This document shows positions 1 through 5,246 of a stretch of 5,246 bases of DNA, piece by piece; position 1 is the stretch's first letter, and each line of letters begins with the position of its first letter. The stretch is from a virus (taxonomy: Duplodnaviria; Heunggongvirae; Uroviricota; Caudoviricetes). A model generated the notes under the pieces. That model was not told where the DNA came from. It searched no databases and worked only from the letters and a program-made list of their open reading frames with translations. Made by a program: the position numbers and the translations under genes. The stretch lies in IMG/VR virus record IMGVR_UViG_2529292908_000004, one strand, 5' to 3'.

Positions 1-42
1 CGCACCGAAAATGTCAGCCAGCTGCTTTTTGTTGACTTCCAT
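1..42 (-). CDS. nohA: Terminase small subunit (Nu1 homologue), N-terminal 14 codons only; gene continues past the window start
   Basis: Minus-strand translation from ATG at 42-40 gives MEVNKKQLADIFGA, matching the N-terminus of lambda gpNu1 as I recall it. It lies immediately downstream of the cos site, as in lambda. Confidence 0.85.
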   Translation of the reverse strand, partial: MEVNKKQLADIFGA

Positions 43-290
43 TGTTCATTCCACGGACAAAAACAGAGAAAGGAAACGACAAAGGCCAAAAAGCCCGCTT
101 TCAGCACCTGTCGTTTCCTTTCTTTTCAGGGGGTATTTTAAATAAAAACATTAAGTTACGACGAAGAAGAACGGAAACACCTTAAACCGGAAAATTTTCA
201 TAAATAGCGAAAACCCGCGAGGTCGCCGCCCCGTAACCTGTCGGATCACCGGAAAGGACCCGTAAAGTGATAATGATTATCATCTACATA
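43..290. other. Lambda-type cos site: cosN with the 12-nt cohesive end at 220-231, cosB Nu1-binding repeats and an AT-rich IHF-like segment at about 60-180, cosQ-side flank at 232-290
   Basis: Minus strand of 220-231 reads GGGCGGCGACCT, followed by CGCGGGTTTTCGCTATTTATGAAAATTTTCC, which matches my memory of the lambda left end. Inverted GTCGTTTCCTTTCT-type repeats at about 64-82 and 108-124 and a CGTTTCCGTTCTTCTTC element at about 160-178 correspond to the R1/R2/R3 arrangement. The flank 232-250 reads as the lambda right end (GATCCGACAGGTTACG on the minus strand). Confidence 0.85.
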
Positions 291-430
291 TCACAACGTG
301 CGTGGAGGCCATCAAACCACGTCAAATAATCAATTATGACGCAGGTATCGTATTAATTGATCTGCATCAACTTAACGTAAAAACAACTTCAGACAATACA
401 AATCAGCGACACTGAATACGGGGCAACCTC

Positions 431-664
431 ATGTCAACGAAGAACAGAACCCGCAGAACAACAACCCGCAACATCCGCTTTCCTAACCAAATGATTGAAC
501 AAATTAACATCGCTCTTGAGCAAAAAGGGTCCGGGAATTTCTCAGCCTGGGTCATTGAAGCCTGCCGCCGGAGACTGTGCTCAGAAAAAAGAGTTTCTTC
601 TGAAGCAAACAAAGAAAAGAGTGACATTACTGAATTGCTCAGAAAACAGGTCAGACCAGATTGA
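431..664 (+). CDS. ynfO: Small YnfO/YlcI-like prophage protein, 77 aa; possible ribbon-helix-helix DNA-binding fold (inferred)
   Basis: 77-aa ORF in the position ynfO occupies in Qin (between the Nu1 gene and ydfO). The segment RNIRFPNQMIEQINIALEQKGSGNFSAWVIEACRRRL has a strand-helix-G-x-S-helix pattern typical of RHH proteins. No obvious Shine-Dalgarno before the ATG. Confidence 0.65.
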   Translation: MSTKNRTRRTTTRNIRFPNQMIEQINIALEQKGSGNFSAWVIEACRRRLCSEKRVSSEANKEKSDITELLRKQVRPD

Positions 665-721
665 AGCAATTTAGATAATCGTGCAGACTACGCCCCCTCA
701 TATCACATGGAAGGTTTATCT

Positions 722-1132
722 ATGGATCAGGTAGTCATTTTTAAACAAATATTTGATAAAGTTCGAAACGATTTAAACTATCAATGGTTTTATTCTGAGC
801 TAAAACGTCACAATGTCTCACATTACATTTACTATTTAGCCACAGAGAATGTTCATATTGTATTAAAAAATGATAATACAGTGTTATTAAAGGGCCTAAA
901 AAACATTGTGTCTGTCAAATTTTCAAAGGATAGGCATCTTATAGAAACGACCTCTAATAAGCTGAAATCCAGAGAGATCACATTTCAGGAATACAGAAGA
1001 AACCTTGCTAAAGCAGGAGTTTTTCGGTGGGTTACAAATATCCACGAACAAAAAAGATATTACTATACCTTTGATAATTCATTACTATTTACTGAAAGCA
1101 TCCAGAAAACTACACAGATCTTACCACGCTAA
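722..1132 (+). CDS. ydfO: YdfO/YbcV-family (DUF1398) prophage protein, 136 aa from the ATG at 722; alternative upstream ATG at 707 would give 141 aa
   Basis: Open frame 707-1132. GGAAGG at 709-714 sits 7 nt before the ATG at 722, so 722 is the better-supported start. Translation resembles the Qin YdfO / DLP12 YbcV family from memory. Confidence 0.75.
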
Positions 1133-1283
1133 ACCATAACGTCCGGCTTCTCTCACTCCTGAGCCGGACTGCATTGGTTTAATAAAAACCATCAACAATT
1201 GTGATTTAGATATTCGGAACCATTCAAATATAACAAAACCCCGTAAAAACGAGGTTTATGGATAAATTTTATTATTGAATACA

Positions 1284-1456
1284 TCAGATTAAATTAATCT
1301 TGACATCATAGCTTTCAAGACCCGTCATTTTTTCCCGTGCGGTAAACTGAATACTGGTAACTTCTTTCCCGGTCTTTTTCTTAAGTTCAATAATTTTTTT
1401 GTTATATATTCAGAAATATCTGCTTCTGCTTTTGTTTTTAAGTTTTCAATATTCAT
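1284..1456 (-). pseudogene. gnsB: gnsB-like gene (GnsA/GnsB family) interrupted by a -1 frameshift at an A7 run (plus-strand T7 at 1394-1400)
   Basis: From ATG at 1456 (GAGG 5 nt upstream) the minus strand reads MNIENLKTKAEADISEYITKK, then runs out of frame to a stop after 43 codons. The -1 frame from the A-run reads IIELKKKTGKEVTSIQFTAREKMTGLESYDVKINLI*, and the two parts together align to the 57-aa GnsA/GnsB family. The ORF track missed it because both pieces are short. Confidence 0.6.
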
Positions 1457-1627
1457 CATTTCCTCTTTTAGTCTGTTATGACTTTCCAGTTACACAGTAA
1501 GTCGATTATATGGTGCAAACGTGTAAAAGATAAGATGAAACATCGCAATAATCAACATACGATAGTCTAAATTTTACACAAACAGACAAAGAGAATTTTC
1601 CTGAATTATCAATGCAATAGCATCAAA

Positions 1628-1783
1628 TCAACTCAAGAGCCTTATTGCTGCTTCCAGAATTTCTTCTGAAGTAACATGTCGATCCGCGGCTACATAAATG
1701 ACTTTATGATCTCCGGTCAGAGATGGAAACCCTGCGGCCATTACAGTAAGGTGTGTTTTTTCGCCATTTGGATATTCACGCAT
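1628..1783 (-). CDS. ynfN: YnfN-like small protein, 51 aa from the ATG at 1783; in-frame alternative starts at 1804 (ATG) and 1819 (GTG)
   Basis: Open minus-strand frame 1628-1819. The 51-aa length and the position between gnsB and cspI match Qin ynfN as I remember it. GGAG lies 12 nt upstream of the 1783 ATG; start choice is uncertain. Confidence 0.55.
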   Translation of the reverse strand: MREYPNGEKTHLTVMAAGFPSLTGDHKVIYVAADRHVTSEEILEAAIRLLS

Positions 1784-1901
1784 GATGGTGTTAACTCCAG
1801 TCATCGCTGGCACTACCACTGCTGGTTCAGAGTTAAAAAAACTATGATTTTTTTCATGATGTTACCGTAGTATGTGAGTATCCATCGAATAGACACCAAG
1901 C

Positions 1902-1921
1902 AAAAAAGCTCCCGAAGGAGC
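1902..1921 (-). terminator. Rho-independent terminator on the minus strand: GCUCC-UUCG-GGAGC hairpin followed by U6
   Basis: Plus 1908-1921 is GCTCCcgaaGGAGC. On the minus strand this is a 5-bp GC stem with a UUCG tetraloop followed by TTTTTT (plus A6 at 1902-1907). It lies downstream of cspI and upstream of ynfN. Confidence 0.6.
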
Positions 1922-2128
1922 CTTCATTTTCACTTTTTTAAATCCAACGACAGACGGCTGGCATTTAAGTATTGTGAAATATTATCAAATGTAATCATCA
2001 TTGATTTACAAAAGATACATTTTGCCCCGAAAGGATTCATGTCAGAAACATCAAAAGATGATGTTCTATACTGGGAACCATGACAACACGGGCATCTAAA
2101 GTGAATATGGTTTGTAATATTGTCTACC

Positions 2129-2341
2129 TCAAAGCGCCACTACATGAACAGCGGCAGGACCTTTAGGTCCGTTCTCAATACCAAATTCAACTTCCTGATT
2201 CTCAGTTAATGTTTTGAAATCGTTGCTCTGAATTGCTGAGAAATGGACAAACACATCTTTGCTGCCATCTTTCGGCGTGATGAAACCAAAACCTTTTTCA
2301 GGGTTAAACCATTTCACTAAACCAGTCATTTTGTTAGACAT
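2129..2341 (-). CDS. cspI: Cold shock protein, CspA family, 70 aa
   Basis: Translation [70 protein letters not shown] carries the RNP1 (KGFGFI) and RNP2 (VFVHF) motifs and matches CspI from memory. AAGG lies upstream of the ATG as in cspA. Confidence 0.93.
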
Positions 2342-2492
2342 AATTATTACCTTTTGAAGAAATTAGCCCTTGGGCAGAATGGTCCGAAAAAAAATATCAG
2401 AGAGAAAAACCAACAAGGAAATCTCAAGAGGTACAAATAATAAAATTATAACAATGACTGCTTCAGATAAATTTGTAACAAACCAGAACACC

Positions 2493-2521
2493 ATTAACGC
2501 ATGATTAACCACCCATAGCAA
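2493..2521 (-). promoter_or_regulatory. Candidate cspI promoter: -35 TTGCTA (2521-2516), 17-bp spacer, -10 GTTAAT (2498-2493), with an AT-rich upstream region
   Basis: The hexamers resemble the cspA promoter (TTGCAT / CTTAAT). The predicted start near 2486 gives a leader of about 145 nt, typical of cold-shock csp genes. Minus strand 2522-2580 is AT-rich, like an UP element. This is sequence pattern only. Confidence 0.35.
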
Positions 2522-2703
2522 GGATTACTTTTGTAAAGAAAAACACAGCAATGAAAGAATAGCTTTATTTATTAATAAAACGTGTCATTCTGATTAAGAC
2601 CTTTTATCTTACCCTTAAGATTTCAGGAATTTTGGCTCATGGAAGAGTCCTTTTTATTTAAATTTTACATTCCGCGATGTAAATGTTCCGATTTAATATT
2701 ACC

Positions 2704-3727
<1,024 letters not shown>

Positions 3728-3731
<4 letters not shown>

Positions 3732-4039
3732 AGATATTTATGATGAGGACGCTCGTGCTTATTGGCAGGATTTTCAATCTTAAAGGAGTACTGATGCTGC
3801 AGATAAGACTCAACTTTTTCTGACAATTTTTCTGCTACTTCCAGGAAGACTTGCCGGACGCTCCTTCTGGCTGCTGCCTCATAAAACTCCAGCGCAGCTC
3901 CTTCAACACGGTCCATGGCGACATCCAGGTCAAAAATTTCACCGTCAAAGCGTTCTTTGTCCTGTAAGGCTACAGTTACCGTAACTTTATTCTCAAAATT
4001 ACGGACTCCTTTCACAACCAGTTCATAGTCTTGAGTCAT
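3728..4039 (-). CDS. ydfR: YdfR-family (DUF1327) protein, 103 aa, located between the holin and endolysin genes
   Basis: 103-aa ORF with no transmembrane segment; matches Qin YdfR in length and position from memory. Starts 4 nt after the essQ stop and overlaps the rrrQ start in ATGA. Confidence 0.85.
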
Positions 4040-4043
4040 TGGA

Positions 4044-4259
4044 TTACTCTCCTCTCGCAGCCTTACGCCTGTCTTCTTTAATCTTGAAATAAAGATTTGT
4101 CAGATACGTCAGCAGGCCAAAAACCAGGCTACCCAGCACACCGATTGCAGCCCACTGTGACGGAGTTACTTTATCGAGTAACTGCAATGCCCAGAAACCA
4201 GCATTACCCGCCGATGTGCCATAGGCAACACCTGTTGTTAACTTATCCATTGATTTCAT
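4044..4259 (-). CDS. essQ: Pinholin (phage 21 S-type class II holin), 71 aa, with a dual-start motif (Met1 at 4259, Met4 at 4250)
   Basis: Translation [71 protein letters not shown] has two transmembrane segments and a charged C-terminus, closely resembling S21. The further N-terminal extension in the ORF track (to 4334) is not supported. Confidence 0.9.
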
Positions 4260-4478
4260 ATCCTCACCCCGATGTACACGGATGGTGCAATATGTTTGAA
4301 AAGATCGGAGTCTACGGGGTAGTTTTGACAGCACACGTTGTTCTCAACGGCGCTAAAAAAACATACACATTAAAAATGTGGGTAATTATTTTGAAAGAAA
4401 GTCATATATAAAATAATAATACGAGAAATGTTTTCATATTTAGTGTACTGTATACGGCCATTTATACAGGAAAAGCCT

Positions 4479-4649
4479 ATGTCAGAACGTAAAAACTCAA
4501 AATCACGCCGTAATTATCTCGTTAAATGTTCCTGCCCAAACTGCACCCAAGAGTCAGAACACAGTTTTTCAAGAGTACAAAAAGGTGCCCTTTTGATCTG
4601 CCCTCATTGCAACAAAGTATTCCAGACAAATCTTAAAGCTGTAGCCTGA
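4479..4649 (+). CDS. Small zinc-ribbon protein, 56 aa, with two Cys pairs (CSCPNC ... CPHC), divergent from the holin; possibly YnfU-like
   Basis: ATG at 4479 is preceded by AGGA 7-8 nt upstream. The basic N-terminus (MSERKNSKSRRN) followed by CxCxxC-x19-CxxC is a zinc-ribbon arrangement. The upstream in-frame ATG at 4428 lacks a Shine-Dalgarno. The YnfU identification is from memory and is uncertain. Confidence 0.6.
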   Translation: MSERKNSKSRRNYLVKCSCPNCTQESEHSFSRVQKGALLICPHCNKVFQTNLKAVA

Positions 4650-4705
4650 TTGATTTTATTAGTAACAAGTATTTTTTATATTTTAATAATATATTTAAAG
4701 CAGAT

Positions 4706-4731
4706 AATAAAAAACCCGCCTGAGCGGGTTT
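4706..4731. terminator. Hairpin terminator AAACCCGC-CTGA-GCGGGTTT: strong in the minus direction (followed by T6), weaker in the plus direction (T3)
   Basis: Perfect inverted repeat at 4712-4719 / 4724-4731. On the minus strand the GC stem is followed by TTTTTTATTATCTG. It could end the plus-strand zinc-ribbon gene and/or act as a tR'-like terminator for minus-strand transcripts entering the lysis cassette. Confidence 0.55.
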
Positions 4732-4956
4732 GAGATTGTGGTGCTTTTTGTGGGAGTCATCCACTTACGCACTTTGTTTTGCCATGCCAGCAGTTAGCTT
4801 CTGCTGTAAAACTATTCATGCAGCAAACCTGCACTTCACCACAATGGTTAGCATACTTTTCCTGATTAAGATTTTGCCAAATATGCTAGCCATTGTTTCA
4901 TGTATTGGACCTCCTTACTTTTTATTAAAGAGATCCAATATTCACTACTCTGTCCG

Positions 4957-5246
4957 GGTGATGCTGCCAACTTACTGATTTAGTGTATGATGGTGTTTTT
5001 GAGGTGCTCCAGTGGCTTCTGTTTCTATCAGCTGTCCCTCCTGTTCAGCTACTGACGGGGTGGTGCGTAACGGCAAAAGCACCGCCGGACATCAGCGCTA
5101 TCTCTGCTCTCACTGCCGTAAAACATGGCAACTGCAGTTCACTTACACCGCTTCTCAACCCGGTACGCACCAGAAAATCATTGATATGGCCATGAATGGC
5201 GTTGGATGCCGGGCAACTGCCCGCATTATGGGCGTTGGCCTCAACA
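4957..5246 (+). mobile_element. IS1 insertion sequence, left end (first 290 bp of about 768 bp); continues past the window end
   Basis: Starts at 4957 with the IS1 terminal inverted repeat GGTGATGCTGCCAACTTACTGATTTAGTGTATGATGG, followed by insA in the expected position and frame. Confidence 0.93.
5012..5246 (+). CDS. insA: IS1 InsA (transposition repressor / N-terminal part of the InsAB' transposase); GTG start, truncated by the window end
   Basis: From GTG at 5012 (GAGG 5 nt upstream) the frame reads (M)[77 protein letters not shown], which matches IS1 InsA. The track ORF at 4983-5195 is in a different frame and is spurious. Confidence 0.9.

Follow-up and report, generated by a model that had tools for sequence, protein, structure and literature searches.

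A split gnsB in a Qin-type prophage

The sequence analysed here, called the window, is the whole 5,246-nucleotide stretch of the IMG/VR record IMGVR_UViG_2529292908_000004. We found that its sequence is that of a cryptic lambdoid prophage of E. coli, of the Qin type, of which it makes up the late-region and cargo part. Positions 1636326-1641282 of MG1655 aligned to positions 1-4956 of the window with seven substitutions and one gap, and the gene order was that of K-12: the start of nohA, then ynfO, ydfO, gnsB, ynfN, ynfR, ynfQ/ymcF, cspI and rzpQ/rzoQ, followed by rrrQ, ydfR, essQ and ynfU. In the active phage PhiR42_1 this module is 99.6% identical, and its gnsB is intact. A sequence-only reading of the window had placed gnsB in a cold-shock cargo cluster, and the presence of cspI, ymcF/ynfQ, ynfR, ynfN and gnsB agrees with this. 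The features used below are as follows.

1284..1459, minus strand: gnsB of the GnsA/GnsB family, Qin prophage, with a one-nucleotide contraction (from translations, the Pfam family PF08178 and comparison with MG1655)
1394-1400, minus strand: run of seven A (A7; A8 in the intact allele), at which the frame changes; formally an A_AAA_AAA heptamer (from the sequence)
1325..1393, minus strand: out-of-frame tail LLNLRKRPGKKLPVFSLPHGKK of the 43/44-aa zero-frame product, with its stop at 1325-1327 (from translation)
1236..1257, minus strand: intrinsic-terminator-like hairpin with a T tract just 3' of the gnsB stop (stem of nine pairs, four of them G-C)
1628..1857, minus strand: ynfN, frameshifted by an 8-to-7 contraction at 1835-1841 (a T run in the sense strand), the same state as in MG1655
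4957-5246, after ynfU in the window: end portion of an IS1 copy, 100% identical to IS1A in locus L005

The prophage cluster cspI-ymcF/ynfQ-ynfR-ynfN-gnsB (window positions 1284-2341) parallels the chromosomal cluster cspG-ymcF-ymcE-gnsA (MG1655 1051461-1052240). The place of ynfN in the one is that of ymcE in the other, and each of these two genes has 76 codons. YmcE is the reported partner of GnsA. BLASTP gave no match between YnfN and YmcE, and homology of the two was rejected. At the other end of the window, IS1 at the exact junction 4956/4957 was not found in complete E. coli genomes or in the retrieved loci. The IS1 copy in locus L142 is oppositely oriented and lies some 80 bp from this point, and is therefore a different insertion.

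The minus-strand open reading frame 1459..1325 encodes MMNIENLKTKAEADISEYITKK and then LLNLRKRPGKKLPVFSLPHGKK before it reaches a stop codon; in the -1 frame, read from 1394 to the stop at 1284-1286, the translation is IIELKKKTGKEVTSIQFTAREKMTGLESYDVKINLI. The start used in K-12 is the second ATG, at 1456. When the two frames are joined at the A7 run (T7 on the plus strand), 21 and 36 codons make up a 57-aa protein identical to K-12 GnsB, whereas the product as written from the second ATG has 43 aa. The translations thus agree with the sequence-only reading both on the split and its codon counts and on its claim that a -1 shift at A_AAA_AAA would restore a normal protein. In MG1655, gnsB is intact at 174 nt. 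The window's copy has the same locus and the same neighbours as this K-12 gene (b1550, Qin) and, once repaired, encodes the identical protein; it differs in that its frame is broken after codon 21/22 because one A of the A8 run is missing.

We compared both forms with Pfam PF08178 (GnsAB_toxin), a profile of 54 positions with a gathering cut-off of 27 bits. The repaired 58-aa sequence matched the full length of the profile (positions 1-54) with 120.2 bits (E = 3e-35). The 44-aa product as written matched positions 1-32 only, with 50.3 bits, and the uninterrupted frame of about 57 codons that is expected of the GnsA/GnsB family is broken at 1394-1400. By these matches and translations, the window's gnsB is a disrupted GnsA/GnsB member, a predicted pseudogene allele. 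Runs of seven A are not enriched in the window (nine observed, 6.1 ± 3.5 expected). Two terminator-like sites were found in the region where 0.4 were expected, one of them the hairpin 3' of gnsB.

A8 is the common state and A7 a recurrent minority

The sequence-only reading had proposed an alignment with other gnsB alleles to see whether A7 or A8 is the usual length. Exact-match counting found the gnsB locus in 2,139 records from 5,426 complete E. coli genomes, and A8 proved to be the common state by far, with about 2,090 of these records (~98%), MG1655 included. The exact A8 80-mer accounted for about 1,428 records, and about 660 further records held a 96%-identical allele of A8 length, in one of which (L006) the A8 was checked. 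The A7 79-mer was present in 41 of the 2,139 records (1.9%) and the A9 81-mer in four. As an independent sample, IMG/VR was scanned with a gapped pattern; 117 loci were found, 107 with A8, eight with A7 and two with A9. A7 is about ten times commoner than A9; this excess, like that in ynfN (13:2), could reflect a mutation bias or weak selection.

Next, the surroundings of the A7 copies were compared over 3.1 kb. A7 was found on at least three local haplotypes that are 62-132 substitutions apart from one another, and each of them was matched by an A8 strain. The A7 strain 01_3327, for example, showed no difference from the A8 strain E2865 over this distance. Likewise, the window, ER1709, UTAK-1, OkiPb01711 and SW071611, all A7, showed no difference from MG1655 and PhiR42_1, both A8, and the A9 strain FORC 064 was identical to this same haplotype group of the window. 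Furthermore, A7 occurs on two downstream backbones, one with ydfO/ynfO/nohA and the other with DUF1398, a hypothetical gene and a DUF1441 terminase. Together, the several haplotypes, the two backbones and the identical A8 counterparts indicate that A7 arises recurrently in E. coli. Certain copies are also clearly inherited within lineages, as AZ155 and GZ04-0086, isolates from different Chinese cities, have in common an IS3-marked haplotype and A7. A7 gnsB is a real and recurrent, probably null, allele at roughly 2-7% of loci.

A7 is probably not an assembly error

We considered whether the source strain has A8 and its consensus lost one base through a homopolymer sequencing or assembly error. 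Compared with its closest haplotype, the A8 locus L099 of IMG/VR, the window shows two 8-to-7 contractions, in gnsB and in ynfN, and no substitution, a pattern that sequencing noise also makes. Such noise does occur in public records: four runs are expanded in L098, several are contracted in L134 and in L142, and UTAK-1 has an extra frameshift in rzpQ. However, the other two 8-nt runs of the window remain at eight and all of its 7-nt runs at seven, and the T7 of ynfN is the state of the MG1655 reference and is therefore a genuine allele elsewhere. A7 is also shared by independent isolates of one lineage, AZ155 and GZ04-0086. At least one other single-nucleotide indel was present in 38% of the A7 loci and in 38% of the A8 loci, a comparison compatible with either error or none.

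Independent assemblies of the A7 sequence also bear on this question. A SPAdes contig from ENA (L141), labelled 89x coverage in its name, matches window positions 1-4956 with no mismatches and has A7, differing at the ynfN run only. The exact 43-aa product was found in 2,217 index blocks of public assemblies (NCBI, ENA, Logan and IMG); at least 1,000 contigs contain it, and at least 1,000 the intact product. These many assemblies, together with L141, make an assembly error less likely for A7, and for the present record we consider it unlikely. As an allele, A7 is certainly real, and the comparisons suggest that it is probably real in this record too. The sequence-only reading had left three explanations standing, namely an assembly error, a true pseudogene and recoding. 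Since A8 is common, A7 is recurrent and thousands of independent assemblies contain it, the plain frameshift allele is the one that these data support.

The slippery heptamer and programmed recoding

The third of these explanations holds that programmed -1 frameshifting or transcriptional slippage at A_AAA_AAA has been selected and yields full-length GnsB. The heptamer is formally valid. It lies in the layout ACA AAA AAA TTA, which fits X_XXY_YYZ in the zero frame, and a slip at this site restores the wild-type protein exactly. In addition, some IS elements employ A_AAA_AAA together with stimulators (PMC4066793). We looked for the other signs of a recoding site. In the 30 nt upstream of the heptamer there was no Shine-Dalgarno-like motif and no GG dinucleotide. 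The 94 nt downstream folded with a minimum free energy of -11 kcal/mol (z = +1.15), worse than shuffled sequence and with no hairpin, and folding of the whole 211-nt gene region was no better than that of shuffled sequence. Thus neither an upstream Shine-Dalgarno-like element nor a downstream stem-loop or pseudoknot was found around the heptamer.

The two-frame arrangement was not conserved among homologues either: about 98% of E. coli loci have a single frame, and the A7 form, at about 2% of loci, is polyphyletic. E. ruysiae and eight Citrobacter species representatives read ACA, ACC or ACT followed by AAA AAA ATN in one frame, and the gnsA paralogues read CAA AAA ATC, also in one frame, so that all intact homologues are single-frame. 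Beyond the truncated N-terminus, whose Pfam match ends at profile position 32, no function could be recognised in the zero-frame product.

The published efficiencies point in the same direction. In E. coli, unstimulated A_AAA_AAA is among the heptamers with -1 frameshifting above 0.10%, against a background of 0.055%, and the best unstimulated motif-to-background ratio is 10 (Sharma et al. 2014, PMC4066793); unstimulated efficiencies are of the order of 0.1-0.5%. In a large share of bacterial genomes, coding regions show evident selection against transcriptional slippage once a run reaches about nine A/T (Baranov et al. 2005, PMC1088944). A conserved run of about nine or more was not found at this site, where the run is seven in the window and eight in the intact allele.

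Known sites provide a further comparison. The A_AAA_AAG of dnaX and the A_AAA_AAN of IS1 and the IS3 family are likewise heptamers of lysine codons at which both tRNA-Lys can re-pair in the -1 frame. In contrast to gnsB A7, those sites are conserved and yield two functional products. All of those E. coli sites except IS1 are accompanied by a Shine-Dalgarno element and/or a stem-loop or pseudoknot (PMC4066793), which gnsB A7 lacks. Programmed recoding, as suggested from the sequence alone, thus found no support in conservation, stimulators or homologues, and we consider its probability close to negligible.

The gnsB run behaves as an ordinary indel hotspot

We then used the 117 IMG/VR loci to measure how often homopolymer runs of the module depart from their modal length, with the following non-modal fractions.

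gnsB run, 8 nt: 8.5%
ynfN run, 8 nt: 15%
non-coding run 5' of cspI, 8 nt: 22%
rzpQ run, 8 nt: 0% (n = 47)
three 7-nt runs: 0-2%

The 8-nt A/T runs of the module are all indel hotspots, and that of gnsB is ordinary and not special among them; the coding runs were less length-variable than the non-coding run 5' of cspI. This last run, an A8 at 2387-2394, lies about 45-50 nt 5' of the cspI start codon, in the 5' UTR or promoter region. It is the most length-variable of the module, with 16 loci at seven, 83 at eight and eight at nine among 107 IMG/VR loci. For ynfN, the intact 76-aa frame (T8) was present in about 85% of IMG/VR loci, and only a 51-aa remnant is annotated in MG1655. As the MG1655 copy is also contracted, what is left of the 76-aa frame in the 51-aa K-12 YnfN is its C-terminal part.

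These fractions bear on the idea that the A8 tract has been selected as a contingency switch, by which a toxin-like prophage gene would undergo phase variation. A7, A8 and A9 all exist naturally and the change recurs; the A8 tract is retained across gnsB alleles that have diverged and in several homologues from Citrobacter; and both Pfam and PGAP call the family a toxin. However, a phase-variable tract is expected to vary more than comparable ones, with its switching tied to a phenotype, and gnsB (8.5%) did not exceed its variable 8-nt neighbours, falling below ynfN (15%) and the non-coding run (22%). In other Citrobacter homologues the tract is interrupted, which leaves an in-frame A7 (ACC or ACT AAA AAA ATA), without consequence. 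Eight bases is also shorter than typical phase-variable tracts. A selected switch is accordingly very improbable in our estimation. There is a similarly slight chance that the A8 tracts of gnsB, ynfN and the cspI leader act jointly as mutable switches, with A7 gnsB as a 'pseudo-pseudogene' expressed via -1 slippage. If this were true, expression of the cold-shock and membrane-lipid cargo of the prophage would be tuned, and the A7 allele would retain a low, physiologically useful level of toxin-like GnsB.

A one-base contraction as the likely cause of gnsB loss

Among the explanations considered, we judge it likely that gnsB A7 is a loss-of-function allele produced when a homopolymer in the coding sequence contracted by one base, from A8 to A7. 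Replication slippage would most likely be the event that drops one A from the A8 run. The same contraction has occurred many times in E. coli, with inheritance in some lineages. The contracted gene is predicted to encode a 43/44-aa peptide made of the first 21-22 residues of GnsB and an unrelated tail, and the function of this non-essential prophage cargo gene would be lost. Full-length GnsB would then come only from unstimulated ribosomal or transcriptional slippage, at about 0.1-0.5%, which would be incidental and not selected. Given the low unstimulated frameshifting (PMC4066793) and the slippage threshold of about nine (PMC1088944), full-length GnsB from the A7 allele should be no more than a trace, like that from any such frameshift mutation, although a trace may still be biologically meaningful.

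By the same reasoning, the slippery heptamer would be a by-product of the mutational mechanism and not a recoding signal. The case shows that even a formally perfect slippery heptamer where two frames meet can simply be the mark left by a homopolymer that lost one base, and that counting run lengths across a population decides such cases fast.

Public records of gnsB

The state of the window's gnsB is already annotated and is thus a known kind of frameshift allele. PGAP labels A7 and A9 copies of gnsB 'frameshifted'. Two such RefSeq pseudogenes, DQ225_RS18255 of ER1709 and I3W_RS10415 of RM10042, have an allele identical to the A7 of the window, with no difference at the level of the gene, and ER1709 also has the T7 of ynfN, like the window. 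In newer PGAP runs, the same A7 sequence is given as a 41-aa CDS with an ATA start, WP_349812768.1 (L010, L013, L014, L017 and L018; 2528-2653), which is probably an annotation artefact. For annotation, A7 gnsB is better labelled a frameshifted pseudogene than a 41-aa or 43-aa 'toxin'.

Several other records of the family were also observed. In E. coli LR-03 (L008, 2446-2500), IS1 adjoins a gnsB remnant whose match begins inside the A-run; truncation by the IS1 insertion or by a deletion would be a second, independent route of gene loss. E. coli ECGI0523 and Shigella flexneri SFBU0723, listed as 'complete' species representatives (L167-L169), have gnsA and gnsB copies broken by several indels and internal stops, a sign that these assemblies may be error-rich. 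Finally, gnsB or gnsA sequences 100% identical to those of E. coli are present in metagenome-assembled genomes named Veillonella parvula and Mucilaginibacter sp. (L148 and L162), and a UniRef name places one gnsB/gnsA-type protein in Lysinibacillus; these three assignments are likely binning or contamination errors.
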